A DNA stretch of 64,000 bases from Eledone cirrhosa (Eukaryota), in contig OZ024756.1 in assembly GCA_964016885.1 (NCBI GenBank), positions 19,158,001-19,222,000 on the forward strand. Reading direction: 5' to 3'. This document shows positions 12,185-34,424 of this stretch, piece after piece. The first letter of the stretch is position 1. Every line of letters starts with the position of its first letter. The notes under the pieces are model-generated. The model did not search any database and had not been told where the DNA came from. It was given only the letters and a program-made list of their open reading frames with translations. The translations under genes were made by a program, and so were the position numbers.

Positions 12185-12236
12185 TGTATGTATATATATA
12201 TATGTATGTATGTATATATATATATGTATGTATATG

Positions 12237-12416
<180 letters not shown>

Positions 12417-12427
12417 TATATACATAT

Positions 12428-12467
<40 letters not shown>

Positions 12468-12502
12468 GTATATATATATATATGTATGTATATATATATA
12501 TG

Positions 12503-12551
<49 letters not shown>

Positions 12552-12552
12552 G

Positions 12553-12583
<31 letters not shown>

Positions 12584-12690
12584 GTATATATATATGTATA
12601 TATATATGTATATATAGGTATATATATATGTATATATGTATATATAGGTATATATATATGTATATATGTATATATAGGTATATATATATG

Positions 12691-12753
<63 letters not shown>

Positions 12754-12766
12754 GTATATATATATG

Positions 12767-12803
<37 letters not shown>

Positions 12804-12828
12804 GTATATATATATATGTATATATATG

Positions 12829-12879
<51 letters not shown>

Positions 12880-12906
12880 GTATATATATATATGTATATA
12901 TATATG

Positions 12907-12953
<47 letters not shown>

Positions 12954-12996
12954 GTATATATATGTATATATATATATGTATATATATATATGTATA

Positions 12997-13041
<45 letters not shown>

Positions 13042-13073
13042 GTATATACATATATATATATGTATATACATAT

Positions 13074-13107
<34 letters not shown>

Positions 13108-13157
13108 AGTCCCACCCTTGCAAGCAGGGAAAAGCGGACGTAAAATGATGATGATGA

Positions 13158-13200
<43 letters not shown>

Positions 13201-13295
13201 ATATATATATGTGTATATATATATATGTGTATATACATATATATGTATATATACATATATATATATATGTATATATATATATATGTATATATATG

Positions 13296-13604
<309 letters not shown>

Positions 13605-13642
13605 GTATATATATATGTATATGTATATATATATATGTATAT

Positions 13643-13966
13643 ATAATATAAGATCAAAAGATGGTTAAAGGAGTTCCATGTATTTTATGATGCGCATTTC
13701 AAAAACAAACATCATCAAGCAATAATATTTGTGTTTTCATCAGATAAAACAGGAGAACATGATATGAAGGCTAAAAAACACTTGTGGATAGTGCAGTTAT
13801 GTTGATTTAAAACTGCACTATCCACAAGTGTTTTTTAGCCTTCATATCATGTTCTCCTGTTTTATCTGATGAAAACACAAATATTATTGCTTGATGATGT
13901 TTGTTTTTGAAATGCGCATAATAAAATACATGGAACTCCTTTAACCATCTTTTGATCTTATATTAT
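13643..13966. mobile_element. Foldback hammerhead element 1 (156-bp arms, 12-nt loop; unique tail to ~14052)
   Basis: 13643-13798 is the reverse complement of 13811-13966, with about one mismatch. Embedded in (TA)n. Confidence 0.9.
13858..13928 (+). ncRNA. Type I hammerhead ribozyme, Penelope-type (mirror copy on - at 13681-13751)
   Basis: ttttat-CTGATGA-stem II-GAAA-TGCGCA (palindromic stem III)-TA-ataaaa. The mirror copy has the triplet ATC. Confidence 0.82.
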
Positions 13967-14089
13967 GTATACTCCAGTCCTACAAACTGTAGAGTGCTTC
14001 TTATCCGATATCTGCATTGCTTTATTGTACTACAATAAAACTCACCTCCTACATATATGTATATATATATATATATATATATGTGTATG

Positions 14090-14144
<55 letters not shown>

Positions 14145-14214
14145 GTATATATATATCAGACCCGTCCCACCCTTGCAAGCAAGGAAAAGCGGACGTAAAA
14201 TGATGATGATGATA

Positions 14215-14298
<84 letters not shown>

Positions 14299-14304
14299 TA
14301 TATG

Positions 14305-14342
<38 letters not shown>

Positions 14343-15089
14343 AATATATATGTATATATATATATATAAATATATATGTATATATATATATATAAATATA
14401 TATGTATATATATATATATATAAATATATATGTGTATATATATATATATAAATATATATGTGTATATATATATATATAAATATATATGTGTATATATATA
14501 TATATAAATATATATGTATATATATATATATAAATATATATGTATATATATATATATAAATATATATGTATATATATATATATAAATATATATGTATATA
14601 TATATATATAAATATATATGTATATATATATATATAAATATATATGTATATATATATATATAAATATATATGTATATATATATATATAAATATATATGTA
14701 TATATATATATATATAAATATATATGTATATATATATATATAAATATATATGTATATATATAAATATATATGTATATATATATAAATATATATGTATATA
14801 TATATAAATATATATGTATATATATATAAATATATATGTATATATATATAAATATATATGTATATATATATAAATATATATGTAAATATATATGTATATA
14901 TATATATATATAAATATATATGTATATATATATATATATAAATATATATGTATATATATAAATATATATGTATATATATATATATATATAAATATATATA
15001 TATATAAATATATATAAATATATATATATATAAATATATATATATATAAATATATATATATATAAATATATTTATATATAAATATATTT

Positions 15090-15143
<54 letters not shown>

Positions 15144-15311
15144 ATTGTGTGTATGTGTTTGTGTGTTAGCTAAGAATGTGGTAGAAAATGTCCATGTGGT
15201 ATATAAAATGTGCAAATTAAAGGCAGGTGTCTTGAAGCCAGAGGATTTGAAAACAAAGTACAATTGGCCACACTGTTATCAAGAAATAAAACACAAAATA
15301 CCATCTTCATA

Positions 15312-17321
15312 ATGGCAATGGTTATGATGATGGTGGTGGTGGTGGTGGTGATGGTGGTGGTGGTGATAGTGATGATGGTAGTGTTGATGGTGGTGGTGGT
15401 GAGGATGGTAGTGTTGATGATAGTGTTGATTGTGAATATGATGGTGGTGGTGGTGGTAGTGTTGATTGTGACTATGATGGTGGTGGTGGTGATGATGGTA
15501 GTGTTGATGATAGTGTTGATTGTGAATATGATGGTGATGATGGTAGTGTTGCTGATAGTGTTGATTGTGAATATGATGGTGGTGGTGATGGTAGTGTTGA
15601 TTGTGAATGTGGTGGTGGTGGTGATGATGATGGTAGTGTTGATGATGGTAGTGTTGATTGTGAATATGATGGTGGTGGTGGTGCTGGTGATGATGGTAGT
15701 GTTGATAGTGATGGTGATGAATATGATGGTGGTGATGGTGGTGGTGGTGATGATGGTGGTGGTGATGGTAGTGTTGATGATAGTGATGATGGTGAATATG
15801 ATGGTGGTGGTGATGATGACGGTAGTGTTGATGATAGTGATGGTGATGAATATGATGGTGATGAATATGATGGTGGTGGTGGTGATGGTGGTGGTGATGG
15901 TGGTGGTGATGGTGGTGGTGATGGTAGTGTTGATGATAGTGATCATGGTGAATATGATGATGATGGTAGTGTTAGTGATGGTGATGAATATGATGGTGGT
16001 GGTGGTTTATGAATATGATGGTGGTGGTGGTGGTGATGATGGTAGTGTTGATAGTGATGATGAATATGATGGTGGTGGTGGTGATGATTGTGGTGGTGTT
16101 GATGATGGTAGTGGTGATGAATATGATGGTGGTGGTGTTGATGGTGATGGTGTTAATGATGGTGATGGTGTTAATGGTGGTGTTGATGGTAATGATGGTG
16201 GTGGTGTTGGTGGTAATGGTGGTGTTGATGGTAATGATGGTGGTGGTGTTGGTGGTAATGGTGGTGTTGATGGTAATGATGGTGGTGGTGTTGGTGGTAA
16301 TGGTGGTGTTGATGGTAATGATGGTGGTGGTGTTGGTGGTAATGGTGGTGTTGATGGTAATGATGGTGGTGGTGTTGGTGGTAATGGTGGTGTTGATGGT
16401 AATGATGGTGGTGGTGTTGGTGGTAATGGTGGTGTTGATGGTAATGATGGTGGTGGTGTTGGTGGTAATGGTGGTGTTGATGGTAATGATGGTGGTGGTG
16501 TTGGTGGTAATGGTGGTGTTGATGGTAATGATGGTGGTGGTGTTGGTGGTAATGGTGGTGTTGATGGTAATGATGGTGCTGGTGGTGATAGTAGTAGTGA
16601 TGGTGATGATGGTGGTGATTATGGTGGTGTTGTTGATGGTAATAGTGTTGATGGTAATGGTGATGATGATGTTGGTGATGACAGTGATGATGATGGTGAT
16701 GAGGATGTTGGTGATGACAGTGATGATGATGGTGATGAGGATGTTGGTGATGACAGTGATGATGATGGTGATGAGGATGTTGGTGATGACAGTAACAGCA
16801 ACAACAACAATGAGGACGATGATGTCAATGACAAAACGACAATGACGACGACGGTGGTGCTGGTGACGGTGTTGGTTACAACAATGATGGCGATGATGAT
16901 GATGATGAGGATGACATCCAGGATGATGTTGATGGTATTGGTGACAACAATGGCGACAACAACCATGACAACAACAATGCTGACGCTGATGGTGATGGTG
17001 AGGATGGTGATGATGATGATGATGATGGTGGCGATGACATCCACGATGATGATGATGGTGATGATGTTTATGATGGTGTTGGTGACAACAATGGCGACAA
17101 CAACCATGACAACAACAATGCTGACGCTGATGGTGATGGTGATGATGGTGATGATGATGGTGGTGATGATGATGGTGATGATAGTGATGGTGGCGATGAC
17201 ATCCACAATGATGATGATGGTGATGATGTTTATGATGGTGTTGGTGACAACAATGACAACAACAACCATGACAACAACAACAACAACAACAACAACGATG
17301 ATGATGATGATGATGATGATT
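15312..17321. repeat. GGT/GAT/ACA trinucleotide-based low-complexity array with 39-bp and 33-bp higher-order units
   Basis: Direct reading. Confidence 0.95.
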
Positions 17322-19503
17322 CAGTAATTGACCATTAACTGATCATTAATTGATTGATTGATGTATGAAAGGCAATTGAACAACAAGAGCTGACTGTGTA
17401 GAAAGTGGCAGCAACTAACCAGTAAGCCAGCTGTGAATAACAGTGGTGGGTTTTTTTTATTATCTAAAATTGGCTTTTAGATTCTAAAGCATGATGGGTA
17501 ATGGAGCCAACCATATGGAATAGTTCTTTGGGGTTTTTTTTATTTTTTTATTTTTCCATTTGTGTTGTGTTGTGTGTGTGTGAGTGTGAGTATGAGTGTT
17601 GGTTGGCAAGCTAAGGGAATGAATAAGATGAGAGTGGGGGAGGAGAGAAAGAGAGAATAAAGGGGAAGAGAGAAGGAAGGAGAAAAAGAAAGCAAAAAAT
17701 AATATAGAGTGTGAGAGAGAGAGAGAGTGTGTGTGAGAGAGAGGAGAGAGAGAGTGTGTGTGAGAGAGAGAGGAGAGAGAGAAAGAAAGAGAAGATAGAG
17801 TGTGAGAGAGAGAAGATAGAGTGTGAGAGGGGAGAGAGATAGAGATAGAGAATTGGGAAAAGACATTATTGATGTGGATTTACTTGTGATATAGGAAATA
17901 CTGTAGCAATGTGGCTGATGACCACATAACTGTTGGGCCTTGAGAAGCACTAAATACTGGGAGAAACATCCAAAATTGCAGGCATTCTCACTATTACCAT
18001 ACAAACTATGGAAGGAGCAGTACTGTGTGTAACAGACTGCTGTATGTCTTGGAATTTAAAGGGAATTCCTGGTCAGCTGGCATGTAGGCAGCTTAATAGC
18101 AGGCACTAGTGGGGCAAAAAAAATATAAACAAAAAAAAAATAAAATAAAAAACAGTTATACTTTTTTTTACAATTTTTCAAGTCTCTTTTTTTTTTCTGA
18201 TCAACAAAATGTCTTTTTTTTTTCCTTTTAATTTTTATTTTGGTATCTTTTTTTTTGTTGTTGCGTGCTATTCTTTCCAGTTGGTCACTCATGATTGATC
18301 TTAGTGAAGCTTTATCTCTGATCACAAGCAAGTGGTTGAATCTGTGCTGCTCAGCCATCAGTGAAGTTTGACCACAAACAACATGTGTCTCGGTCTGTTA
18401 AAAGATGGTCAATAAAATTTAGCCACAGACCACATACATACCTCCCCGCTCCTCAATATAAGTGGCCAGTAAATTTTATCCATATGGACCATACATTTCT
18501 CTGTCTAGTTAGTACAAATGGTCAGCAAAATTTGACCCTGAATCACATGTCTCTCAGCTGGTTTAGAACAGTCAGTAAAGTATGACCACAGACCACAGAC
18601 CACTGACCATAGACCCTGTGTGTGGTCAGTGTGCAAGTCTCCACTCAACTTCTCCTGTCTTTGTCAGGCTGCCATAAAAAAGCAGTTGTAAGGACAAAGA
18701 CACACTTCTTCAATGTCAAGAGTGAAGCTATTTAGCCCATGGTAATGTGTAAGACCATACAAGGCCTTATGGCTGACCAAGTGTGTACTGAATATCAAAC
18801 ACTGGAATATAATTCTGCATTGAGGCTTGGAACCAGTAAAGGGGAAAAATAGTGCAATCCACAGCCTAAATTTGCCTGCAACTGGTTGTATCAACCAAGC
18901 TGGGGTTTTTTGGCAAATTGTCTAGGATAGTTCTCACTAAAATTCAGTTGAGGATAACAGTATTGAATTAACATTTCTTTTTCTTCTTCTTCTTCTTCTG
19001 GTAATCCAACTCGGTTTGAGAGCAGAATTCAGTGAGTGGGAGTGTTAGTTTTGTGCTTTGGGTAGAAGCTACATCAGGAGAAAACAGTAAATTTCCAAGT
19101 CAAAATGAAATCTTGAACAACAGATTAGATTAAGAAATATAAATAAATTAAAATTTTAAAAACAAAAAACAACAAATAAAAAATAACAAACAAAAGAAAA
19201 AATATAAGAAATAAAAAATAAAATAATTAAAATAAAAAAAATATTCCTTATTTGGTTAGTAGTAATTTTTGTTTCCATTCATTTAACCTTCACATTGAGA
19301 TCATGTTGAATAAGGAATATAAAAGGTATTTAAAATTAAAAGGAAAAATAAATGATATTAGAAAAAAATAAATAAGGCATAAATAAAAATTAATGAAGTA
19401 AAATACGATGGGTATATATATACTTGTCTCCGAACGATGTTTGATCTTCTACCAATACATAAACTTTCCGTTAAACCTTAACTTAAAGAAACTGACTGTA
19501 AGT

Positions 19504-19985
19504 TTAACGATATATTGATGTCCTTGCAGAATTTGATGAGGTTGGAGATTCTGTAGGTGTCTGTTGAATGCTGCTATAAGGCTGGTACACTGATGACGTT
19601 AAAGCAGTCTGTGTATTAGATTGTAACGTTGACAAGTTCAAAGGAGGTATATCTTGGGGCCTATAAACTATAAAGGATGTGGGGGGTTGTTTCCGCTTTT
19701 TGCGATGAGTCCGTACATGTCCGAGTAAGGAAGATTCTGAGTCCACTCTACCAAAACTACTCTGATATGAAGACGGGAACGAACTGCTGTAGTGAGAACT
19801 ATGTGATGCCGATATGGCGGAATAAGTCCTGTCTGTTGGAATTTCACGCAGAGATTCAACAGAATCTGAATGATAGCTAGTTCCTGGGCCAGAGGCTGGT
19901 ATCTGTATAGGTGGTACTGACCGAAACACCATAATGGGAGTCAAAGGTAAGTCATAACGACTGTGGCCAGAAGCAACTCTTCGAT
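19504..19985 (-). CDS. ZDHHC1: ZDHHC1/11-like terminal coding exon (DRRVASGH...RTSIYR*), Ser-rich tail
   Basis: ttttcAG acceptor, phase 1, 159 open codons to TAA. Unique, non-repeat sequence. Confidence 0.78.
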
Positions 19986-20569
19986 CTGAAAATAAAGAAA
20001 GGTAAATTGTTATTAACTCTTTAGTTACCAACCCAGCCAAAAACTGGCTCTGGTTTTATGAAATAAAGTCACTCATTTTGAATGTTTCCAATTTATATTA
20101 AAATCTTCCAAACATGATTTTATATAAGAACCTTACATTAAGTTACTATCCAGTAATGAAATAACGATTTTAGTAAATCCTCAAAATTCTTCATTAATAA
20201 TTAATATAGAGAGTTCCTATTTAAATTAAAATCTACAAAATAATTTTATATAAGAACTTTACATTAAGTTACTATCTTAGTAATGAAATAATTAATAATT
20301 TTTAGTAAATCCCTCAAAATTCTTTATTAATTAATTAAAATAGAGGGTTCCTATTTAAATTAAAATCTTCCAACATAATTTTATATAAGAAGAATCTTGA
20401 AGCAAACACTCAATAAACTGTCCTTATAAAAGACATACACAATAAACTTTGTAAATGTTTTAAATATATGCTCAAAGTTACTCTTAAAATTTGAAATTGA
20501 ACTTAACCCTCACCAGGCAGAACTGAAAAGAGGCAACTTCAACAACAAACAACTTCAATTCCAAATGCA

Positions 20570-21125
20570 AACTGTTATTATAACTTATAACAGATATTCA
20601 GGGTAACCACTTTAATACTCTAGATAACTATTACAACAGATAAAATAGATATTTAGGGTAGTCACTCTAATACTAATGAGAACTGTTATTATAACAGATA
20701 AAACAGATATTTAGAGTGGTCACTAATACTATAGTGAACTGTTATTGTAACTTATAACAGATAAAACATATTTAAGGTGGTCACTAATATTATAGAGAAC
20801 TGTTATTATAACTTATTATAAGCGATAAACAGATATTTAAGGTGGTCACTCCAATACTCTAGAGAACTTATTATAACAAATAAACAGATATTTAAGGTGG
20901 TCACTCCAATACTCTAGAGAACTTATTATAACAAATAAACAGATATTTAAGGTGGTCACTCCAATACTCTAGAGAACTTATTATAACAAATAAACAGATA
21001 TTTAAGATAGCCACTCTAATACTCTAGATAACTTATTATAACAGATAAACAGATATTCAGGGTGATCACTAATACTCTAAATAACTGTTAGAACAGATAT
21101 TTAAATTGATCACTCTAATACACAA
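20570..21125. repeat. ~55-60-bp minisatellite
   Basis: Repeated ataaacagatatttaaggtggtcactccaatactctagagaac unit. Confidence 0.9.
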
Positions 21126-21280
21126 ATAAACAGATAGAGTGCTGAGGGTGGTGATGGTGGTGATGATGATATGCGTATGAACAAAGGCAACAATAAGACA
21201 AGTGTAGCAATAAAGAAATAAGAAACAGTTCCACTATGATAGTAGAACTGAAACCAGGATCAATAAAAAATGTTATTTAC

Positions 21281-21377
21281 CTCTAGTCATGGCAAAAAGT
21301 TCACGCTCTGTTACCGAATGTGAAATTTTTCGATCTTTCTTTCGTTTCCTTCTCTTTTTTACAGGGTCTTTGTCAAG
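21281..21377 (-). CDS. ZDHHC1: ZDHHC1/11-like exon 11 (LDKDPVKKRRKRKKDRKISHSVTERELFAMTR)
   Basis: ttcttAG and GTAAAT sites, 97 nt, phase 0 to 1. Polybasic cluster. Confidence 0.75.
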
Positions 21378-21869
21378 CTAAGAAAAACAAATCAAAGCAA
21401 AACCTCAAAACCAATTCCATGCAGAAAACAACAATATCCCTTATTTTGTTTCACTTATTTAAATTTGAGAACAAAGCATCCAAATAAAATTAGTATATAT
21501 GGTTTGTCTCAAAAACAACATTTGAAGTACTTCTAATCAAATTCTTTAAATGAGAGTTGCTAGAGCTACTACTTCTCTGAATTGAGAGATCACAGCTCTG
21601 ATACTATGGACATGTGGTTAGAATGTCTCAGGAAAGAATCACTGGATACCGGAGATGTCTTATTTTTTTCTTTTTTCTTTCTAACACTTCTACGTGCCAA
21701 ACACACTTCTCCTTATTCCCCTCCTCTCTCAATCATTTTTATAGCATTGATCTCTGACCTTACAAGTATTTTTACCTACGCTGCCATTGACAGCATTTGG
21801 TTGTTCAAGTTTTCTCATTTTTCTATGAATATCATCAACATTGTTTAACACCCATTTTCCACACAAGCA

Positions 21870-21901
<32 letters not shown>

Positions 21902-21995
21902 AGCAAAAGAGATATTTAATTTGTTGGTAATTCAACAAATATATATGTTTATAACTGATTCGAAGCACTCGACAGGTTTTCTGGAGTATAATATT

Positions 21996-22406
21996 CAATG
22001 ATATTAAATAAATGGAAACTATATTTATTCTATTATATATATTTCAAGGGTACCAAAACTTTGGTACGCTCTCATCAGATAAAATACAAAGTTTGTTTTA
22101 TAAATATTGACATATCCAGTCGAGGGACCTTCCCTCACGTCTATGTCAACAAGACAATCCAACGAGGATACTATCACATTTTACCACCCTGTCAACTCAC
22201 GATCAATCATTCATCTACCCTGCTAAAGGTTCAAGTTATTCCAGGAATAACTTGAACTGTTAAGATCTTCTTCCTGGTTATGTCAATATTTATAAAACAA
22301 ACTTTGTATTTTATCTGATGAGAGCGTACCAAAGTTTTGGTACCCTTGAAATATATATAATAGAATAAATATGGTTTTATAAATATAGTTTCCATTTATT
22401 TAATAT

Positions 22407-22411
<5 letters not shown>
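21996..22411. mobile_element. Foldback hammerhead element 2 (~125-bp arms, ~155-nt loop with internal hairpin; tail to ~21901)
   Basis: Arms at 21996-22119 and 22274-22411, flanked by (TA)n. Confidence 0.88.
22307..22367 (+). ncRNA. Type I hammerhead ribozyme (mirror copy on - at 22026-22086)
   Basis: tattttat-CTGATGA-gagcgtaccaaa/tttggtaccctt-GAAA-TATATA-TA-atagaata. Stem I is 8 bp. Confidence 0.82.
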
Positions 22412-22449
<38 letters not shown>

Positions 22450-22488
22450 GAAAACAAGGCGTGCTACGTGGTTGCAAATGGGTTACAT

Positions 22489-23293
22489 ATGAATAAATTT
22501 AGTCCTTCATCAGCGATCTTCCAACCTTCATTGGTATTTCATCGCTTTAAAGGCCATATACCTCTGGTTGGTGCGAGCAACGGCTAAAGAAAGTCGTTGG
22601 GACACGTAAATAGGGGGAATGAGCGAGACAGTAAACAAAGAAAGAAAGATGGTAATGCCACGAAAATTGAGGAAGAAGGAGTCAAGTCCCTCAAATCGAT
22701 GAACATAAGTTCTGTGAAATCGTGGACGAGAGAGAATAAAGACCATCCAACCTGGTCGAAATGTGAGTAAGGTCAAACGGGAGGAAGTAGGAGAGGGAGT
22801 AAAAGGAAGTGAGAAATACAGAGAAAAGGGAAGCAGTAAGAAAGAAACAGACGGGTCACAGCGGAGGATCCCCTTTTCTCTGTATCTCTCACTTCCTTTT
22901 ACCCCCTCTAACAGTCACTCTCTCTGTTAGCCTCTTCCTCACACTTTCACTCACTCACTCTCTGCTACTCCCTCTCCTACTTCCTCCCATTTGACCTGTG
23001 CAAAATTCTTTCCTTACTCACATTTCGACCAGGTTGGATGGTCTTTATTCTCTCTCATCCACGATTTCACAGAACTTATGTTCATCGATTTCAGGGACTT
23101 GACTCCTTCTTCCTCACTTTTCATTGCATTACCATCTTTCTTTCTTTGTTTACTGTCTCGCTCGTTCCCCCTATTTACGTGTCCCAACAACTTTCTTTAG
23201 CCGTTGCTCGCACCAACCAGAGGTATATGGTCTTTAAAGCGATGAAATACCAATGAAGGTTGGAAGATCACTGATGAAGGACTAAATTTATTC
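22489..23293. mobile_element. Large nested foldback (~280-bp arms) with truncated hammerhead cores
   Basis: About 22490-22772 is inverted relative to about 23012-23293. Inner inverted pairs: 22771-22801/22966-22996 and 22800-22830/22871-22901. Both arms end after CTGATGAaggactaaa. Confidence 0.8.
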
Positions 23294-23331
<38 letters not shown>

Positions 23332-23918
23332 AAAAAGTGTGGATGTTAGAAAACGCTCCGTACAGCTTATATTATATAAGGAAAATGATAATAAAAAATG
23401 GTTTAAGGGTTTGAAAAGCGCACCTGATATATAAACATATATATATATATTCAAGGACAGAAGCAACCTAAACCAACATGGTCAAGAATCAGCATGCAGG
23501 AGTTTTAATGAGAAAAAAAAAACAATTTAACCTAGTAACAGATCTTATGTTTTGATAATCCGACATGGAGAAAGTGAGCTTTGCTAAACATCATTAATTT
23601 TTTAATGAACTGGGTAATTGCTGGCCTTGTGCCTAAAGTAGAAACAATTAATTTTTGTACATGTTATAAAGATCTTATATATATATATATATATATATAT
23701 ATTTACAAGGGCGGTGCCCCAGCATGGCCTCAGCCGGATGGCTGAAACAGGTAAAAGAGTAAAAGAGTATATATATATATCTCAGGTGTGCTTTTCAAAC
23801 CCTTTTTTGTTATCATATATATATATATATATATGTACGTATGTATATAAGATATTTATATGATCTTCGTTATTAAGGTTTTTATAGTTTTCAGGATTTT
23901 AGAGAAGCTATTACTTAC

Positions 23919-24015
23919 CCTAGCTGAAGAAACTTGTTTGGAATCTTTATCTTTACAGGATAATTTATCGATGGAAACATCATCTCCAGGGTGCCGAGGA
24001 ACAGTTGAACGGATT
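23919..24015 (-). CDS. ZDHHC1: ZDHHC1/11-like exon 10 (IRSTVPRHPGDDVSIDK...VSSAR)
   Basis: ttttacAG and GTAAGT sites, 97 nt, phase 2 to 0. Confidence 0.75.
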
Positions 24016-24471
24016 CTGTAAAATAGAGACAGTAGATAAATGTATTGACTGAAGTTATACAGAATTATATTGAAGTTATATAGGATATAGGATAATGCAC
24101 TCAAGTAAAAGAGATTAGAATAGTTGTATATGTATTATGTAACATCAACACATATATATATATATATATGCCTTACCCATACTATTATTATCCCCCCTGT
24201 ATCCGACTATATCCTTCCTAACCCCCACCCCAAATCAATCACAGTAACCACTGTCCTTTGATATAAAGTGGGCAATCTTTCGCCCTGTATCTGATGCTAT
24301 ACCTTTCCTACCCCTTCTCCAATAGAAAGTGGGCAATCTTTCACTCCTCTATAGAATGGAGAAGAAAGATTTGCTTCTGTTAGCTCAATACTGATTTCCA
24401 GGGAACAATAGTCAGAAAATGGTGTTGCTGGTGATGGTGATGGTGGTAGTAATAACAGAAATAGTAACAAT

Positions 24472-27022
24472 AGCATTAGTAGCTGTAGCAGCATTAGTAG
24501 CTGTAGCAGCATTAGTAGCTGTAGTGGCTTTAGTAGCTGTAGTACCATTAGTAGCTGTAGTACCATTAGTAGCTGAAGTACCATTAGTAGCTGTAGCACC
24601 ATTAGTAGCTGTGGTGGCATTAGTAGCTATAGTACCATTAGTAGCTATAGTACCATTAGTAGTTATAGTACCATTAGTAGCTATAGTACCATTAGTAGCT
24701 ATAGTACCATTAGTAGTTATAGTACCATTAGTAGCTATAGTACCATTAGTAGTTATAGTACCATTAGTAGCTATAGTACCATTAGTAGTTATAGTACCAT
24801 TAGTAGCTGTAGTACCATTAGTAGTTATAGTACCATTAGTAGTTATAGTACCATTAGTAGTTATAGTACCATTAGTAGCTATAGTACCATTAGTAGCTAT
24901 AGTACCATTAGTAGCTGTAGTACCATTAGTAGTTGTAGTACCATTAGTAGCTATAGTACCATTAGTAGTTATAGTACCATTAGTAGCTGTAGTACCATTA
25001 GTAGCTGTAGTACCATTAGTAGCTGTAGTACCATTAGTAGCTATAGTACCATTAGTAGCTGTAGTACCATTAGTAGCTGTAGTACCATTAGTAGCTGTAG
25101 TACCATTAGTAGCTGTAGTACCATTAGTAGCTGTAGTGGCATTAGTAGCTGTAGTGGCATTAGTAGCTGTAATACCATTAGTAGCTGTAGTACCATTAGT
25201 AGCTGAAGTACCATTAGTAGCTATAGTACCATTAGTAGCTGTAATACCATTAGTAGCTGTAGTACCATTAGTAGCTGTAGTGGCATTAGTAGCTGTAATA
25301 CCATTAGTAGTTATAGTACCATTAGTAGCTGTAGTACCATTAGTAGCTATAGTACCATTAGTAGTTATAGTACCATTAGTAGCTGTAGTACCATTAGTAG
25401 CTGTAGTACCATTAGTAGCTGTAGTGGCATTAGTAGCTGTAGTGGCATTAGTAGCTGTAGTGGCATTAGTAGCTGTAATACCATTAGTAGTTATAGTACC
25501 ATTAGTAGTTATAGTACCATTAGTAGCTGTAGTACCATTAGTAGCTGTAGTACCATTAGTAGCTGTAATACCATTAGTAGTTATAGTACCATTAGTAGCT
25601 ATAGTACCATTAGTAGCTGTAGTACCATTAGTAGCTGTAATACCATTAGTAGTTATAGTACCATTAGTAGTTATAGTACCATTAGTAGTTATAGTACCAT
25701 TAGTAGCTGTAGTACCATTAGTAGCTGTAGTACCATTAGTAGCTATAGTACCATTAGTAGCTGAAGTACCATTAGTAGCTGTAATACCATTAGTAGCTGT
25801 AGTACCATTAGTAGTTATAGTACCATTAGTAGCTGTAATACCATTAGTAGCTATAGTACCATTAGTAGCTGAAGTACCATTAGTAGCTGTAGTACCATTA
25901 GTAGCTGTAGTACCATTAGTAGCTGTAATACCATTAGTAGTTATAGTACCATTAGTAGCTGTAGTGGCATTAGTAGCTGAAGTACCATTAGTAGCTGTAA
26001 TACCATTAGTAGCTGTAGTACCATTAGTAGCTGAAGTACCATTAGTAGCTGAAGTACCATTAGTAGCTGTAATACCATTAGTAGCTGTAATACCATTAGT
26101 AGTTATAGTACCATTAGTAGCTGTAGTGGCATTAGTAGCTGAAGTACCATTAGTAGCTGTAATACCATTAGTAGTTGTAGTACCATTAGTAGCTGTAGTA
26201 CCATTAGTAGCTGTAATACCATTAGTAGCTGTAATACCATTAGTAGTTATAGTACCATTAGTAGCTGTAGTGGCATTAGTAGCTGAAGTACCATTAGTAG
26301 CTGTAATACCATTAGTAGCTGTAATACCATTAGTAGTTGTAGTACCATTAGTAGCTGTAATACCATTAGTAGTTATAGTACCATTAGTAGCTGTAGTACC
26401 ATTAGTAGCTGAAGTACCATTAGTAGCTGAAGTACCATTAGTAGCTGTAATACCATTAGTAGCTGTAATACCATTAGTAGTTATAGTACCATTAGTAGCT
26501 GTAGTGGCATTAGTAGCTGAAGTACCATTAGTAGCTATAGTACCATTAGTAGTTATAGTACCATTAGTAGCTATAGTACCATTAGTAGCTGAAGTACCAT
26601 TAGTAGCTGTAATACCATTAGTAGCTGTAATACCATTAGTAGTTATAGTACCATTAGTAGCTGTAGTGGCATTAGTAGCTGAAGTACCATTAGTAGCTGT
26701 AATACCATTAGTAGCTGTAATACCATTAGTAGTTGTAGTACCATTAGTAGTTATAGTACCATTAGTAGCTGAAGTACCATTAGTAGTTGTAGTACCATTA
26801 GTAGTTATAGTACCATTAGTAGCTGAAGTACCATTAGTAGCTATAGTACCATTAGTAGCTGTAATACCATTAGTAGTTGTAGTACCATTAGTAGTTATAG
26901 TACCATTAGTAGCTGAAGTACCATTAGTAGCTGAAGTACCATTAGTAGCTGTAATACCATTAGTAGCTGTAATACCATTAGTAGTTGTAGTACCATTAGT
27001 AGTTGTAGTACCATTAGTAGCT
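24472..27022. repeat. 18-bp minisatellite (ccattagtagYtRtagta), about 140 units, intronic
   Basis: Strict 18-bp period with a few variant units. Confidence 0.97.
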
Positions 27023-28034
27023 AAAGTCATACAAATCTTTTACAACCACTTTTCCTCCAGCTCCCTTTCTCCCACTTTTTAGCAAAAATCTCAGATACTT
27101 TTGCATATTTACCTCACCTTTCTGTTTAAAATATCTTGTCATTGTTTCTTTCCAAGCTTCTCACATAAATCCCCACTGCCATCCTCATCATTTAACGTCA
27201 GTTTTCCTCCTTAAATGATGATAATGATGATGATGTAATATATATATATAGAGAGAGAGATGAGGTGGGAAGTTATGATAATTCCTTGCTTGTTGCCCAG
27301 AAACCTTTGAAGAGGTCATCTTAATGTAGCAGTATATAAATACACTTATTAATTCAACATTTAAAATCTGTGCTACTAACCACTGCAACTAAATCGACCA
27401 AATTTGTCACAGTTATTCCCTTGCTAAATAGTATTCAAAAATATTTCATGTCGAGTGCAGTAATTTCACAGAAGAAATATTAAAAAATAGGCATTTTCTC
27501 CTGCTCGTTAATTACAACTCGTTAAGACAAACATTTAATGAAAAAATTGAAGATTTTAATATTTGCAAAAAAAAAAAAAAATACAACAACAACAACAACA
27601 ACAACAAATAAAGTTAGATAAATATAAAGTATTTTAATTCTTTCATGCCTAATTCAACTATATTTAATCTTTAGCACGCTGCCTGCGACAAATTGCGACA
27701 AGAGAGTAATCTCCCCTTAATTCATAATGCAATGTCAAGGGAAGCAATTCATAGAAAGATTCAGCATGCTAAAGGTTGATTTACACGAAAATGTTAGGTC
27801 CAAATCTGTCTATGTAATTTGGCCTGCTCATGCAACTTTAGCTCATTGACAACATGGTTTACAGTTAGCTAGGTTATATATGTAGTACCCCTTAAGTAAT
27901 GCTGCTGGTAATTATAAAATATGATACCAAAATCATTAACGGCATGATTTAGAGTTAGATTAGTCGTACTTAGTAGCAGACATTAAATGACGCTACCAGT
28001 AGCTGTAGTCAGTGAAATAACTAATGTACTAATA

Positions 28035-28474
28035 TACGAGGGTTGACTGAAAAGTCCATAAACTGACCAAGATACTCTCATGGAATGACCAAATGAGGTT
28101 TATTTTTACAACATAGTCCCTGGAAAGAAACGATGCAGTTAATAAGAAGAGATGAAATGAATGCATGCAAGATTTCACAGCTCTAGCATCCCTCCATCGT
28201 AGTCAGCCTATGAACCTTTCTGTCCACCCTCGTGTGTGTGTGTGTGTACATATATATATACATATATATACACACACACAAGGGTTGGCTGAAAAGTTCA
28301 TAGGCTGACCAAGATACTCTCATGGAATGACCAAATGGGGTTTATTTTTCAACATAATCCTTGGAAAGAAACAATGCAGTTGTTAATAAGAGATGAAATG
28401 AATGTATGCAAGATTTCACAGCTCTAACATACCTCCTCCATAGACAGCCAATGAACTTTTCAGTTGACTCTTGT
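28035..28474. mobile_element. Two tandem mariner-type MITEs (third, inverted, at ~61334-61524)
   Basis: TA-CGAGGGT..GCTGAAAAGTTC / GAAC..TTC..CACCCTCGT TIRs. Confidence 0.75.
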
Positions 28475-29169
28475 AGTTAGTAGAATTATGATATATGGAG
28501 TAGCCAATACTCAGATGCTACCATCAGCTACAGACTGACAAATCTGTAGACACACTGATGACTGCGTATGGTAAGAAAAGACTCTACTATACTTCTAGTG
28601 GCCATCTTGATTCATGGCTGTAGTCACTGTAAATGTTACCAGCAATTGCTAACTAAGGTAAAGAACTAATTCTAGTTAATCTATTACTCCATTACGTGTT
28701 CCAGTCGACAGGTCGAGGCCATGCTGGAGCATTGTCATTTAGTTGTTTTGTTTTTTTAAACTTCAATCTATTCTGGTTTTAATTAAAATTCTATCAATAC
28801 TTTTACAAATTAATCGTTTAGGACCTAATTGTAATTCCACTTCACATTCACTGCTTCTCTTCAATCTTTTTATATAAACATAATAGCTAATAGTGAGAAC
28901 TCTGGCAATTTCTTGCTTCTCGCAAAGAATTCTTGCTACAACAAGAGGCAGATTAATCTTCAATGTACATAAAAGAGCAAAGACATCTCTACCTTCTTTA
29001 GAAATTAGTTTCAACTTCTTTTCCTTTCAAGCTCATCTGTTTCCCTTGCAAATAAATAGTATAACATAATCATATTCTATCCAAGAAAATCCCTTCTTAC
29101 ATATTTCAACCTTCAAATAGTTCGTCAGCTGATTCAAATCTTTCAACCAACCAATTATTTGACTATCTG

Positions 29170-29470
29170 TCAATCGCTCAACTAAATATTTGATCATTTG
29201 TCATGTGCTAAGATCAAACAAACCCTTAATCACTCAACTAAATATTTGAACATTTGTCTTGAGGTAAGATCAAATATACCCTTCAATCACTTAACTTATT
29301 ATTTGACCATTTGTCATGTGATAAGATCAAATATACCCTTTAATCTATAGTTTATAATTATTTGATCGTTTGTCATGGGATACGATCAAACATACACTTT
29401 AATCGCTCAACTAAATATTTGATCATTTGTCTTATGACAAGATCAAATATACACTTTAATCTATAGTTTA
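29170..29470. repeat. Diverged ~60-bp tandem repeat
   Basis: Repeated tatttgatcatttgtc...aagatcaaa unit. Confidence 0.75.
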
Positions 29471-30116
29471 CATAATGATCCAGCTCACTAAAGTAGATTG
29501 GGTTTGAAATGAAGTGAAATTAAATGAATTTGATCAATAACAGTTCTCACTGAAGTCTGGGATCTTGTCAATCAATTCAATTGATTATTAAAACCACAAT
29601 TGTTTCTATAAAACATATTCTTCAAATTTCTTTTTAAATAACTTTTTGTTTTGTCAAACAATAAGGCCAGTGAGAACCAAAGCCAGGTTTGATTTCATTC
29701 TTAATGATCATGAAGTCACTATGTTGAAAACACATGAATTTCAAAGACAATACAAGAGACATTGAAAACTGTGGAATTTATATTTCTCCAAAGTAAGCCA
29801 AATTGTTTCTAATAGGAATTAGAGTTGGAATGCCTATTTTATTCTCCAATAACTTTCTGCTGCATGTTTGATACAAAGCCATATATATATATATATATTC
29901 TTCTTTGCCCACTTATTCCTGTGAGTGTCTTGGGGGAAGAGTCCTTAGACACCCCTTCCACTGGCTTCTGTCAGAAGCAACCATCTCCAATTGATCAGGC
30001 AGGATTCCCAAGCGAGACCATATACATGTTGATATGTTAAACAGAGATGAAGTAAGTAACTATGGCACTAGTCAACTGGCAATAGTTCTGAGTTAAAATA
30101 ATTGTTCTGTGTTAAA

Positions 30117-30510
30117 ATAATTGTTTCTACTTTTGGCACAAGGCCAGCAAATTACCAGTGTATTACTGGTACTTTATTTTATCGACCCCATAAGGATGAA
30201 AGGCAAAATTAACCTCAGCGGGATTTGAACTCAGAATGGCAAGGGCCGTAACTCTATGCATCAAAGCATGGCGTCCGACCCTCTACCGATACTGCCAATC
30301 CACCGTTCTGTGTTAAAATAATGATAAACATTATGTGGTGTGTGAGCGGTGGATTGGCAGTATCGGTAGAGGGTTGGACGCCATGCTTTGACGCATAGAG
30401 TTACGGCCCTTGCCATTCTGAGTTCAAATCCCGTCGAGGTTAACTTTGCCTTTCATCCTTACGGGGTCGATAAAATAAAGTACCAGTAATGTACTGGTTA
30501 GAAACAATTA
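30117..30510. mobile_element. Head-to-head pair of tRNA-derived SINEs; same family at ~1100-1240, 3685-3830, 31435-31640, 35650-35840, 38500-38650, 52990-53133, 56550-56720, 57266-57690, 61075-61260, 63445-63597
   Basis: B-box GAGTTCAAATCC and core gaggttaactttgcctttcatcctt.cggggtcgataaa. Each copy has its own 16-18-bp TSD. Confidence 0.85.
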
Positions 30511-31699
30511 TGTGGTGTGTGAACAAGATCTTCATTGGTCTAACAATTCCATTATAAGATTTAATGATTAATCAAAAAACATATCTGTATGGCAGTTCTC
30601 TAAAATGTTCATACAAATTGAACAAATGAAGCAACTTCTAATGAGTAACTTGATCCGCTCAATGAAGCTGTCAAATCTAACAAAAAGACTCCCCACCATT
30701 TTGAAAATGGTGACTCATACATTTTAGATCACAAATTTGAGTATATCATGCTCTACAATAAAGATGTGGGGTCTATAGCTAGGAAGCTGATCAAAGACAG
30801 AAATTCAAACAATACCAAAACCTTCAATACCAATCCAGGGTCTTTGATTCCCTTGCTTCTTCTAAATATTCAACATCTACCATGCCATAAGGCATCTTAA
30901 TAAGAGCTGATAGAATCTAGCCAACAATAATACAGCAACCACCTTCGATACCTAATATATTATAGGGTCGCTGGTCCTGGGAAAGGTAGGGGCTACTTCT
31001 AAATGTTTTATCAACATCTTCTATACCATAAGGTTTCTTACGTGCTGATTGAATCTAGCAAACAATATCACAGCAACTCATGCAGCTAAGAAAATAATGA
31101 TGGCTAACTCATGGTCGGTTGCTAAAGGGTAGTACAATTGCTGAGCGGTTTATCATCATGTAGTTGAGGTTTTTTTAATGTTTCTATGGGGAATTTTGTA
31201 TTTTCTCCATCTTGTCAATAAAATAAGTTCTATAAACACACTAAAGTAAACAGCTATATCTCTAGAGAGCTGCATTAATAGTTTTACTGCCAAACATATC
31301 AATACTTTCCCCTATATCATGAACTAAGTACAGGCTACCTACCTAACAACACTAACAACATCAATAACTCATGCAACATTACTCATGCAATAATAATAAT
31401 AACAATAATAACAACAACAATGATTATAATGGTCTCTGATTTAGGCAAAAGGCCAGCAATTTGGGGGGAAGGGAAGTCAATTAAATCGACTCCAGTTTGT
31501 TACTGGTACTTTATTTTATCGATCCCGAAAGGATGAAAGATAAAGCTAATCTTGGCAGGATTTGAACAGAGAACGCAAAGGGCCACAACTTTCAGCTGCA
31601 AAGCATGTTGTTTGTTGCTCTACCGGTATTGCCAACCCACTGTATTTTGTAAGTAATATGGTAAGGAAAGGGTTAATGAGAAGTATAGAAGACAGTGTG

Positions 31700-32110
31700 G
31701 TGGCATGTGGCCTAGTGGTAAGTGTGTTGGTATTACGATCATAATGTCGTGGGTTTGATTCTTGGACTGGGTTGTGTGTTGTGTTCTTGAGCAAAACACT
31801 TCATTTCACGTTGCTCCAGTATACTCAGTGGGGCTGTGTGGCCTAGTGGTAAGGGTGTTGGACTTACAATCATAATGTCGTGGGTTTGATTCTTGGACTG
31901 GGTTGTGTGTTGTGTTCTTGAGCAAAACACTTCATTTCACGTTGCTCCAGTATACTCAGCTGAAAATGAGTACCAACAGCAATACCTGGGGGTTTAACCC
32001 TATGATGGAATGGCATCCTGTCCAGGGGAGTGTCTTGTACCCCTAGTTGCTTAACACCATGGAAACCAAGATAAGCCACTGCTGATGAGCTTCCAGGCTT
32101 CAGATAGACT
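31700..32110 (+). mobile_element. tRNA-derived SINE with tandemly duplicated head (relatives at 45723-45935, 47030-47168, 4613-4840)
   Basis: A-box TGGCCTAGTGG, B-box-like GGTTTGATTC, core cttgagcaa.acac. 31706-31829 is repeated at 31836-31959. Confidence 0.75.
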
Positions 32111-32452
32111 TTATAGTAGACAGTAGGATTGGAGAGCAAGTGAGAAAACCAGTTAAGGTGTGAGGTACAGCATTGTACTGTCTAACTTCACTTGAGTCTA
32201 ACTCCACTTGAGTGAAGGTGTTAAGGTGTGAGCTACAGTATTGTACAGTGTCTAACTCCACTTGAGTAAAGGTGTTAAGGTGTGAGCTACAGTATTGTAC
32301 AGTGTCTAACTCCACTTGAGTGAAGCTTCAAGTCCAATTAAGAAATTGTTATTTATGTTAGTAGTAAAGAATACAAATATATTATTATAGTGTATTAGTT
32401 TAACACCACCAACGATTACTAGCAAATACAAAAGTAATATGAATGTGTGTGC

Positions 32453-32507
<55 letters not shown>

Positions 32508-32555
32508 CATACAGTAAGTAAGTAAGGTACTCAATACATTAGTAGAGTATATACA

Positions 32556-32665
32556 AAATTTAATATAGAAATAGCTTCTACAGGACTAGAACCATTTCAT
32601 TTGAAGGAAATCATCATTTGAATGAAACAGTTCTAGTCCTGTAGAAGCCATTTCTATATTAAATT
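32556..32665. mobile_element. Short foldback carrying the 3' half of a hammerhead
   Basis: Inverted arms atatagaaatagcttctacaggactagaac. The + arm reads GAAA-cag..ctg-TA; the core is broken at the junction. Confidence 0.6.
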
Positions 32666-32687
32666 ATATATATATATATATATATAT

Positions 32688-32963
32688 ATAGTTATGTAAT
32701 AAACAACATAAGGCAATTATTCCATTTACCAGTGGTTTCTTAAAAGCAAAAAATATTTTGCTTTCAATCCTCAGAATGAAAAAATCCTGGTCTGTTTATT
32801 GAATTTGGATTTAAAAAACAAAATTTTTTTTGTTTTTAAAATCCAAATTCAATAAACAGACCAGGATTTTTTCATTCTGAGGATTGAAAGCAAAATATTT
32901 TTTGCTTTTAAGAAACCACTGGTAAATGGAATAATTGCCTTATGTTGTTTATTACATAACTAT
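32688..32963. mobile_element. Foldback hammerhead element 3 (~135-bp arms, almost no loop; tail to ~33027)
   Basis: Near-perfect palindrome centred at ~32825, between (TA)n tracts. Confidence 0.9.
32870..32931 (+). ncRNA. Type I hammerhead ribozyme (mirror copy on - at 32720-32781)
   Basis: tttcatt-CTGAGGA-ttgaaagcaaaa/ttttgcttttaa-GAAA-cca c tgg-TA-aatggaa. Confidence 0.85.
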
Positions 32964-33095
32964 TAAACTCTGTTACCTACATAGAGCACTCTTTTTTCCT
33001 GGACTTTTCTGACAGAATTACTTCACATATATATATATATACTCAGATTATTTTATAACTTATAAACAAACAAACAAAAAAACATTCCAACTAAC

Positions 33096-33130: not shown

Positions 33131-34202
33131 CTGAAAAATAAAATAACAATTTAGAGTATAGAGTTCAGAGGGGGAGAAGGAGATGTATAATACATGTATA
33201 AACAATATAGGTGAATATATCTTTAAATATATTGTGTAGGAGTGACGACTGGTGGGTGGAAAAGTACCAGGTGATCCAAATGAAAGAAAGTTCCAGAAGC
33301 TGTAGGAAAAGAAAGGCGTCAGCAAAGGTGGTAAATACTGAACTGAAAGTAAGTATAACGACACAAACTAGAAAATTGATGCCATCCAGCTTAACACAGA
33401 ACTAAGTGGGAATGAAACTAAATAGATGTTAGTGTTCAGCTATCTCCACCATTTCTTGGCAAAATACTGATTTCTAACATATCCCTGTGTATCATACAAG
33501 GGGACTAACAGAAGGCTTGGCCTCAGGAAGGGCATCCGACTGCAGAAACACTGCCTCCAAAAATGGCCGTCCAACATGGAAAGGTGAATGTAAGAAAGAC
33601 AAACAACGAACAGCACTTTTAGAAGAAAATAAAGAAAACAAAATAAGATTGTATAACCTTCCATACAATTGAGAGATCACAGCTCTGATACTATGGGCGT
33701 GTGGTTAGAATGTCTCAGGAAAGTATCACTGGACAGATTTTATGGGCAAAACCAACTGGCAGGAGACCCAAGGGTAGACCCTGAGCAAGATGATTGGATA
33801 AGATCCATGAGCCTTGACTGGTCTCACTTGGGAATCTAGCTGGATCAGTTGGAGACGATTGCTTCTGACAGGACCCGCTGGAGGGAGTGTTTGAGGACTC
33901 TGCTCCATGACCCTCTCAGGAATAAGTGGAAGAAGAAGATCTTTCATGTCTTTCACAAGAGGATTATTGAAGTCATTGAAGCAATGAGACTACACTAGTT
34001 ATTAACTGTTTAGCATTTACATTACCCTATATATACTATTGTATTTTCACGGTAAAGGCTTTATCTCACATAATATCTAATCTATGGGATTTTAATGTTA
34101 TTTATTTTGAGAACAATACCTTAACATCAGTATGGGTAACAAAGTATGGCTGATTTGAACAGAAAGAGGTGAGAGAATTCTGACTGGATATAGCCGGTTT
34201 AA

Positions 34203-34424
34203 CCCTTTAGTGTTCAAACCGGCCAAAACCGGCCAGAATTCTCTACCTCATTCTGTTGAAACTGGCTGTAACTGGTCGCTCAAAATGATGTTATGGTATT
34301 GGTCTCAAAATAAATACTTTCAAAATCTCATAGATTCGATATTATGTGAGATAATTATGTGAGGTAAAGCCTTTACCTTGAAAATATAATAGTATATATA
34401 TTGAGTAATGTGAATGCTAAAGGG
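34203..34424. mobile_element. piggyBac-type MITE inserted, inverted, into the right TIR of another copy
   Basis: TTAA is duplicated at 34199-34202 and 34425-34428, and the host TIR resumes afterwards. Confidence 0.85.

Follow-up and report, generated by a model that had tools for sequence, protein, structure and literature searches.

Among described retroelements, the Penelope-like elements (PLEs) of the Hydra clade are one of the closest matches to the insertions analysed here. In Craig 2021 (PMC8557442), this clade is characterized by RWK and DKT motifs, a CxCX5C linker, CxxC and CxH motifs, no CCHH and a C-terminal endonuclease, and its members are generally <3 kb. The supplement gives (TA)n as the target, includes an octopus Hydra family and describes a 5'-truncated inverted copy of Penelope-13_HM with hammerheads on both strands; the paper names the origin of PLE inverted repeats as an open question. 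Here we analyse five insertions, E1 (13643-14050), E2 (21905-22411), E4 (22444-23297), E5 (32512-32665) and E3 (32688-33027), in a 64-kb window of the Eledone cirrhosa genome (contig OZ024756.1, 19158001-19222000; a 3.0-Gb genome in 1,796 contigs).

An inverted pseudo-long terminal repeat (pLTR) with a one-sided tail was also described by Arkhipova 2013 (PMC3846280), where self-priming on an antisense template was proposed. Since Craig 2021 and Arkhipova 2013 describe this same arrangement, the foldback insertion architecture is already known. For the protein of an anole PLE, cutting and extension of the two target strands were demonstrated, together with two reverse transcriptase (RT) start sites that bound the tail; hammerhead cleavage was not required (Frangieh 2024, PMC11167929). 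PLE hammerheads of this kind are weakly active in vitro and likely act as dimers (Cervera and de la Pena 2014, PMC4209133). Type SGC hammerhead ribozymes, validated in vitro by Eckert et al. 2023 (PMC10085705), are reported there from environmental RNA only, and from no genome of a known organism.

All five elements of the window are probably PLE insertions beside (TA)n. Four of them, E1, E2, E3 and E5, are the ribozyme-carrying ends of Hydra-type elements that encode proteins, and their inverted, tail-less copy probably arose during insertion. E4 would be a tandem passenger without an open reading frame (ORF) and with a predicted type SGC hammerhead. This candidate permuted hammerhead, overlooked in a first-pass annotation of the window, is the most unusual feature.

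Palindromes, hammerheads and (TA)n flanks

The window is dense in microsatellites and short repeats. E1 (13643-13966) and E3 (32688-32963) are near-perfect palindromes, the self-complementarity of E3 being 97.8%, and E4, with arms 91% alike, and E5 are partial, imperfect ones; the first-pass annotation had described these four in the same way. E2, which it also listed as near-perfect, has a 14-nt indel between its arms and a spacer of ~150 nt that includes 109 nt of a different repeat family. When the 64 kb were searched with a strict descriptor of type I hammerheads, exactly 6 motifs were found, one on each arm of E1, E2 and E3, compared with 2 matches in total in 200 dinucleotide shuffles. 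All six point outward as previously noted, and the same orientation prevails elsewhere in the genome: among the first 100 motif matches on one contig (C1), neighbouring motifs ≤8 kb apart are outward in 32 cases and inward in 1 for E1, and outward in 19 and inward in 2 for E3. The observation that the elements end at (TA)n is also borne out, with all ten ends lying ≤9 nt from a (TA)5 run, compared with 3.9% of random positions.

The annotation had assigned a core of the order CTGANGA-stem II-GAAA to every arm. This order is present in E1, E2 and E3. In E4, GAAA lies upstream of CTGATGA, and in E5 the core is truncated at the fold centre, so that C3 is missing together with the 5' half of stem I. 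A palindromic stem III, AUGCGCAU, is found in the direct-arm hammerhead of E1 (within 13858-13928, plus strand), while stem III of E3, for which the same form had been claimed, is a 4-bp stem with a 1-nt loop. One-sided tails, earlier restricted to the three complete elements E1-E3, are also present on E4 (22444-22489, minus strand) and on E5 (32512-32555, minus strand), where the tail is shorter than in most copies of the family. Rfam gave no hammerhead among the 150 of 487 matches listed, and a second Rfam scan gave none among all 110 matches.

The predicted fold of a transcript spanning the whole E3 foldback is a single long hairpin of -215 kcal/mol, and a read-through foldback transcript is accordingly modelled as a long hairpin burying the ribozyme. 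Because the ribozyme would be buried in this way, the palindrome would be a by-product and not a two-ribozyme device.

The families are unrelated and present in many copies, as had been proposed. Counted genome-wide as exact motif matches, that is, as motifs rather than insertions, there are 14,946 for E1, 2,833 for E2, 4,810 for E3, 20,859 for the E5 family and 12,645 for the E4 type, and reversed-pattern controls gave 0. A pattern drawn from a single locus of E5 has 1 match, and the family count uses another pattern. The possibility that the arms are single-copy is contradicted by these thousands of matches per family. In the flanks of the loci fetched, at least a dozen other type I hammerhead families were seen, mostly adjoining (TA)n, and these microsatellites therefore appear to collect insertions of many PLE families. 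Further hammerhead-like cores lie in the window at 54741 (plus strand) and 63657 (minus strand), the former resembling a family met 11 times in the fetched loci.

Coding parents of E1, E2, E3 and E5

A query made of the E3 ribozyme and tail retrieved 30 loci, which by eye comprise 17 short foldbacks (the window copy included), 5 loci extending upstream, 1 gap-ended locus and 7 other truncations. Expansion of the 5 upstream-extending loci led to RT and endonuclease frames in L195, the endonuclease of which gave 69,370 first-look candidates (other families included) and 150 scored matches at 91-100% identity. Among 12 loci chosen for long frames, 11 have an ORF of 676-718 aa and all 12 have the E3 hammerhead downstream. 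The motifs DKT, YRDD and CxCX5C are each present in 11/11 of these ORFs, and RWK in 9/11. One copy, L205, consists of (TA)n, an inverted pLTR, a pLTR with tail, a 715-aa ORF, a 2.2-kb untranslated region (UTR), a second pLTR with tail, and (CA)n(TA)n, and is ~4.7 kb long from the 5' pLTR to the 3' tail.

The window copy of E3 has an inverted, tail-less pLTR arm (32688..32824, minus strand; hammerhead 32720-32781), a direct pLTR arm of this intact Hydra-clade PLE (32825..32963, plus strand; hammerhead 32870-32931) and a tail (32964..33027, plus strand) that is identical to the parental 5' UTR start in L205 and reaches (CA)(TA)n. On this sequence comparison, the E3 layout is that of the 5' end of a full-length insertion, and the E3 tail corresponds to the start of the 5' UTR.

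The same connection is found for the other three. In the E1 family, Hydra-like coding sequence lies upstream in 6/6 expanded loci, and the tail enters the ORF start in L257. The window copy is formed by an inverted, tail-less pLTR arm (13643..13797, minus strand), with a hammerhead at 13681-13751 whose UC cleavage site is a private change, followed by the direct pLTR arm of a Hydra-type PLE (13798..13966, plus strand; type I hammerhead 13858-13928, core 13866) and by a tail (13967..14050, plus strand) that reaches (TA)n and is identical to the parental 5' UTR start, based on L238, L239 and L257. For E2, a Hydra protein was matched in 10/10 loci and the E2 arm lies downstream within the locus in 7/10, the coding sequence being decayed. 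The window copy shows the tail (21905..21995, minus strand), the direct pLTR arm of a decayed Hydra-type PLE (21996..22119, minus strand; hammerhead 22026-22086), the fold junction with its 109-nt piece of an unrelated repeat (22120..22228, no strand) and an inverted, tail-less arm that is longer than the direct one (22229..22411, plus strand; hammerhead 22307-22367). The spacer repeat itself (22120-22228; L373-L377) has 1,029 candidates in the genome, often as direct pairs ~2.15-2.25 kb apart, and a CTGACGA lies just upstream of it. The E5 copy in the window has a direct arm, the end of a Hydra-type PLE, with the type I hammerhead cut at the fold centre (32556..32617, minus strand), and an inverted arm (32618..32665, plus strand). 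The E5 tail continues into a Hydra-like ORF in 2/30 loci, with copies sharing ≤1.5 kb upstream, and the reading of E5 as a short ORF-less element was rejected for this continuation.

The Penelope link proposed in the first-pass annotation thus extends to coding parents, and the search from the arms that it recommended yields ORFs of 676-718 aa for E3 and partial coding sequence for E1, E2 and E5. Its further description of all the elements as non-autonomous, ORF-less families holds for E4 and fails for E1, E2, E3 and E5, whose hammerhead and tail are connected in longer copies with sequence coding for RT/endonuclease.

The linker reads CSCRKPDEC in E3, CNCRIKNKC in E1 and CNCRIKSNC in E2. CxxC and CxH endonuclease motifs are present and, by eye, CCHH is absent in the translations of the E1, E2 and E3 parents; the E1 parent has DKT, with RWT or RWN in the place of RWK. 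The RT of L205 tracks Hydra-1_Obim closely in a by-eye comparison with the published alignment, and two further marks of the clade are found as well, namely pLTRs that carry a canonical type I hammerhead and the use of (TA)n as the insertion site. On the basis of these motifs and of the likeness to published Hydra proteins, the parents of E1, E2, E3 and E5 are assigned to the Hydra clade. L205 departs from the usual length of <3 kb because of its long 3' UTR. The domains of the E3 parent (RT and a GIY-YIG-type endonuclease) go unrecognised by Pfam, and a search of public runs with the E3 parent listed no RNA run containing it. Against the assignment of coding parents to every family stands the fact that only broken or partial frames, and no single full-length intact ORF, were seen for E1, E2 or E5.

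The 3' UTR of the E3 parent contains a second, diverged hammerhead (82-92% identical) ~400 nt past the stop, at L205:5287-5390 with equivalents in L206-L216.

Neptune-type PLEs, to which a GIY-YIG search led and which have a CX4CX2C linker and RT and GIY-YIG domains recognised by Pfam, are abundant in this genome (L148, L149, L151, L158, L159, L145, L150). They were rejected as parents of E1-E5, since none of 19 3' regions ended in any of these elements; their proteins are about 25-26% identical to the parent proteins. In one Neptune-type family the 3' UTR contains a minimal hammerhead, and the other families have no CUGANGA in the 3' regions examined. Among the long coding Neptune-type copies, L150 and L159 are multi-kb near-perfect foldbacks.

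Formation of the inverted arm

To follow the history of the arms, variants were compared in 42 E3 and 29 E1 foldbacks. Those occurring in ≥3 loci are on both arms in 63 cases and on one arm in 17 for E3, and on both in 43 and on one in 4 for E1. Single-locus variants have the opposite distribution, with 43 on one arm and 2 on both for E3, and 21 and 2 for E1. No alignment column has an arm-specific majority in either set, and the arms diverge within a locus by 1.7% (E3) and 0.7% (E1), compared with 3.3% and 2.5% between loci. Since lineage variants are on both arms and private ones on one, the two arms would derive from one source lineage at insertion and would have mutated separately thereafter. 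These variant patterns, together with the junction comparisons given below, indicate that every insertion event produces its own inverted arm.

Separate mutation after insertion is evidence against ongoing conversion and also against an assembly or library artefact, in which hairpin chimeras would have formed beside low-complexity DNA. Such an origin would agree with the finding that, in the contigs of four public runs, no read or contig crosses a whole palindrome. However, the short-read contigs of these runs (one study, possibly the same sample) hold varied inverted-to-direct joints, the copies are spread over many contigs, the structure agrees with published PLEs, and private mutations have accumulated on each arm to the extent given above, so that an artefact is extremely improbable.

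The short foldbacks could also be cassettes, i.e. non-autonomous families copied whole from palindromic masters, which is close to the self-complementary ribozyme cassette envisaged in the first-pass annotation. Outward E1 pairs lie <300 nt apart in 19/32 cases, 15 of them at 142-155 nt, and one exact E1 junction recurs in 5/27 copies, as copying from a master would predict. The E1 peak may, however, be accounted for equally well if the RNA always begins at an initiator-like TCA, which lies ~66 nt upstream of the core. By eye, a junction type crosses subfamilies and one subfamily has several junctions, E3 centres vary from copy to copy, and E1, E2, E3 and E5 have coding parents. Whole copying from palindromic masters is therefore improbable. 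The cassette is not the unit of inheritance, since the copies do not agree in their fold centre and neither arm has a fixed difference of its own.

Junctions were measured at 32/42 E3 loci (4 have no inverted anchor and 6 have missed anchors), 10/30 E2 loci and 27/30 E1 loci. The inverted arm has a constant end point, which falls short of the end of the direct arm by one tail, and the position of the fold centre varies among copies. The direct arm is the longer one in 7 E3 copies, the inverted arm in 8, and the two are equal in 17 (n=32); the corresponding numbers are 1, 5 and 4 for E2 (n=10) and 21, 2 and 4 for E1 (n=27). Many junctions contain short repeated local copies, and that of E2 in the window contains the 109 nt of another repeat mentioned above. 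Foldbacks also occur among long coding copies (L150, L159). It is noted that the E1 direct arm begins 66-67 nt upstream of the anchor in 25/27 measured copies, at the initiator-like TCA, which may be a transcription start in the pLTR.

We somewhat favor a route in which two complementary DNAs (cDNAs) are joined. The PLE protein would nick both strands of (TA)n, and two cDNAs would be primed from RNA of a single source lineage, one starting at the tail end and the other at the pLTR end, positions that would correspond to the two RT starts seen in vitro for the anole PLE (Frangieh 2024, PMC11167929). Each cDNA would stop early independently. The pair would then be joined head to head, in many cases with a short stretch between them that was captured or templated locally, and this joining would account for the outward orientation of the ribozymes. 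When both cDNAs are short, a palindrome of 150-500 nt without an ORF would result. Two-cDNA joining resembles the twin priming of L1.

Alternatively, the inverted arm could arise by snap-back self-priming of a single cDNA, which we regard as rather unlikely in general but as a live explanation above all for E1. The direct arm of E1 is longer in 21/27 copies, and at its junctions a T run located 15 nt back could serve as the pairing partner for A residues at the cDNA terminus; iterated local copies at the junctions of L187 and L021 show fold-back synthesis, and lineage variants common to both arms would be expected from self-priming as well. In contrast, the inverted arm is longer in 8/32 E3 and 5/10 E2 copies, zero-loop symmetric junctions are found in L044, L045 and L051, and the exact stop of the inverted arm at the pLTR/tail border is left unexplained by self-priming. 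For the joining of two cDNAs, one difficulty is the asymmetry of E1, which fits snap-back better (inverted arm longer in only 2 of the 27 copies, and a 2-nt difference of the reference at the junction). Moreover, the loci compared for arms and junctions were picked mostly through resemblance to a foldback query, and later flipping of a spacer between the arms would blur the arm-variant comparison. On balance, the thousands of young foldbacks may be taken as a natural record that leans toward two-ended priming by the PLE reverse transcriptase.

E4, an ORF-less tandem unit with PLE-type ends

Beyond its tail, E4 in the window has a direct arm (22490..22867, minus strand), a near-complete ORF-less unit with internal deletions, and an inverted, tail-less arm (22870..23297, plus strand). 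The unit of this family is about 490-640 nt, without an ORF, and is repeated in head-to-tail arrays with a motif spacing mostly of 490-540 nt and sometimes of 630-640. The longest ATG frames in two units are 52 and 102 aa. E4 copies do not extend into coding sequence; what adjoins them upstream is an inverted arm, (TA)n or a tail of their own. Among 105 loci screened, none had a copy connected with a PLE ORF, nearby matches being separate insertions where inspected.

The youngest E4-type subfamily is 99-100% identical, and 30 of its loci represent 21 independent arrays of up to six 497-nt units. The 3' end coincides with the tail end in 20/21 arrays and the 5' ends are scattered; inverted, tail-less arms are present in 4/21, all terminating at unit position 454. 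Among the first 30 E4 motif matches on C1, 21 end 50-68 nt past the motif and 4 end 11 nt past it. L101 shows an E5-family foldback with its tail joined directly to an E4 body, a possible template switch between two PLE-type RNAs.

E4 is likely a new retrozyme-like family with a permuted ribozyme, although it may already be catalogued as a repeat in Repbase or Dfam. By the route that we consider fairly probable, the unit would be transcribed as multimers, which would be cut by the SGC hammerhead at AU(A/C/U) and possibly circularised like a non-LTR retrozyme; PLE proteins would then copy this RNA back in trans, so that the resulting arrays would share their 3' end and differ in their scattered 5' ends. 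Mobilisation by PLE proteins is proposed because of the tail and the inverted arms. Two observations count against this route: no PLE partner was found for E4, and the 5' ends of the arrays are not sharply concentrated at the predicted cleavage position. The E4 motif had 0 matches in a metagenome scan.

A candidate permuted hammerhead in E4

The candidate type SGC hammerhead lies on the inverted arm at 23173..23288 (plus strand, 116 nt). All conserved hammerhead nucleotides are present, in the order site-GAAA-CUGAUGA, a non-circular permutation corresponding to type SGC. Block S is formed by stem III' (23222-23226), H17 (23227) and stem I (23228-23233), block G by U11.1 (23243), GAAA (23244-23247) and stem III (23247-23251), and block C by stem I' (23265-23270), CUGAUGA (23271-23277) and R10.1 (23278), all on the plus strand. 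Extra helices on this strand pair 23213-18 with 23258-63, 23208-12 with 23238-42 and 23181-84 with 23279-82, and a hairpin is placed at 23186-23205. The direct arm carries the equivalent candidate at 22496-22611 (minus strand), with two private changes in stem I. Diverged E4 relatives, retrieved by BLAST without the motif, have both core halves with GAAA first. The core letters are kept in these relatives, the single exception being a private loss in L096, and farther upstream they have complementary strands for stems III and I, flanking a U-H dinucleotide.

The fold was evaluated on two samples. A1 consists of 14 hand-picked copies (462 cells), and A2 of 23 position-ordered copies (759 cells), namely that of the window and 22 taken from the first 30 matches on C1; the 8 left out comprise 5 without most of the upstream part, 1 with an internal deletion and 2 not listed as separate rows. 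The SGC fold is paired in 94.4% of the A1 cells and 96.0% of the A2 cells, compared with 24-50% in slid controls. Changes on both sides of a pair are found in stems I and III, in two side helices and in the pseudoknot helix. Pairing in A2 amounts to 100% for stem I and 98% for stem III; in either stem, one pair is altered on both strands and wobble changes occur, which represent few independent events. The 6-bp pseudoknot helix covaries, with 3 pairs changed on both sides; this helix and a side helix link other strands than is described for HRIMA-1. In an alignment-free test, ≥10 of 11 pairs form in 30/43 segments and in 47/8,600 shuffles. Position 17 is A in 175, C in 8, U in 2 and G in 1 of 186 matches, the loci not being independent. 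Two other folds were rejected: a type II fold, which is 59.7% paired with no both-side changes, and a type I reading across the tandem junction, where there is no GAAA.

Several points weigh against the SGC hammerhead. Stem II is a single pair, R10.1-U11.1, and its continuing strands pair elsewhere, unlike the validated SGC motif; a multi-pair register of stem II is paired in 38% of cells. The GUCC/GGAC helix never varies and is thus unsupported. The compensatory cells come from few subfamilies, and the 8 covarying pairs of A2 are matched by 214/500 shuffles. The pattern used to fetch A2 had the core letters fixed, and raw conservation between two subfamilies is 66% in the motif and 60% in the rest of the unit. 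Because a one-pair stem II fails a defining feature, E4 is filed as working like type SGC and not as a member of it.

With such a stem II, the E4 RNA could instead be a non-cleaving, protein-binding or decayed half-core element like the Naiad 'HHR_half_core'. This explanation is doubtful, though it has several points in its favor. The half-cores of Craig 2021 (PMC8557442) have their second half 35-50 nt away, the anole PLE inserts in vitro without hammerhead cleavage (Frangieh 2024, PMC11167929), and the excess conservation of the E4 motif is modest. A half-core would not, however, account for stems I and III pairing exactly around U16.1-H17, for the restriction of position 17 to A, C or U except in one match, for variation at N7 as in hammerheads, or for the formation of all 33 pairs in the youngest subfamily (L364, by eye), and the E4 motif string was not found in the accessible part of the Craig 2021 supplement. 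The reading that we narrowly prefer is that E4 is a currently active, PLE-mobilised, retrozyme-like family with a self-cleaving, non-circularly permuted and multiply pseudoknotted hammerhead, the one-pair stem II of which would be held by the helix junction. Such a ribozyme would be the first of its kind in a cellular genome and would be invisible to type I-III searches. In the accessible part of the literature searched, most subscription journals being outside its reach, no SGC or permuted hammerhead was reported in an animal genome.

Other repeats in the window

Inverted pairs of short interspersed repeats without hammerheads lie at 30154-30498 and 33996-34434, and a repeat at 28068-28463 is partly tandem and partly inverted around a microsatellite. 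Judged on translations alone, 48954-52084 (minus strand) is an element of the long interspersed nuclear element type, whose frames of 636 and 407 aa resemble endonuclease and RT. The larger arrays are a (TA)n-rich region of 7.6 kb (7510-15131), (TGG/TGA)n at 15319-17300 and an 18-nt minisatellite of 141 copies at 24474-27022.

Implications and comparison with known systems

The foldbacks are numerous and young enough for testing how PLE inverted repeats are formed, and the arm-to-arm difference could date each insertion, as pairs of long terminal repeats do. If the E4 motif cleaves, non-circularly permuted hammerheads would not be limited to environmental RNA replicons, type I descriptors would under-count animal retrozymes, and a 116-nt natural sequence would be at hand for the study of a hammerhead with a minimal stem II.

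The published Hydra-clade PLEs Hydra-1_Obim and Penelope-13_HM (PMC8557442) share the protein motifs, the canonical hammerhead and the (TA)n targets with the parents of the window elements. Compared with these published elements (<3 kb), L205 is ~4.7 kb and has a 2.2-kb, repeat-rich 3' UTR holding the second, diverged hammerhead. In addition, four distinct families are found here, each with thousands of motif copies, and solo insertions of inverted pLTR and pLTR plus tail make up a large share. The likeness to Penelope/Poseidon (PMC3846280, PMC11167929) lies in the head-to-head inverted pLTR, the tail at one end, the palindromes at junctions, the AT-rich targets and the two RT starts. In contrast to those systems, the thousands of young copies permit statistics on arms and junctions, and either arm may be the longer one, which pure self-priming does not predict.

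Animal non-LTR retrozymes (PMC7229834; 10.64898/2026.07.22.740005) are like E4 in being ORF-less, in forming head-to-tail arrays with one ribozyme motif per unit and in their proposed dependence on PLEs. Their hammerheads are of type I and their units measure about 150-450 nt, whereas the E4 unit is about 490-640 nt, with explicit PLE tail and inverted-arm ends; its motif is permuted, the order being S-G-C with no GAAA after CUGAUGA, so that the type I trait of retrozymes is absent. With the type SGC hammerheads (HRIMA-1 and variants; PMC10085705), E4 shares the S-G-C order, the conserved core, the crossing stems I and III, a linker of 3-4 nt after stem I and an extra pseudoknot helix. It differs from HRIMA-1 in that it sits in an animal retroelement, that its one-pair stem II is followed by a multi-helix junction and that its extra helices join other strands.

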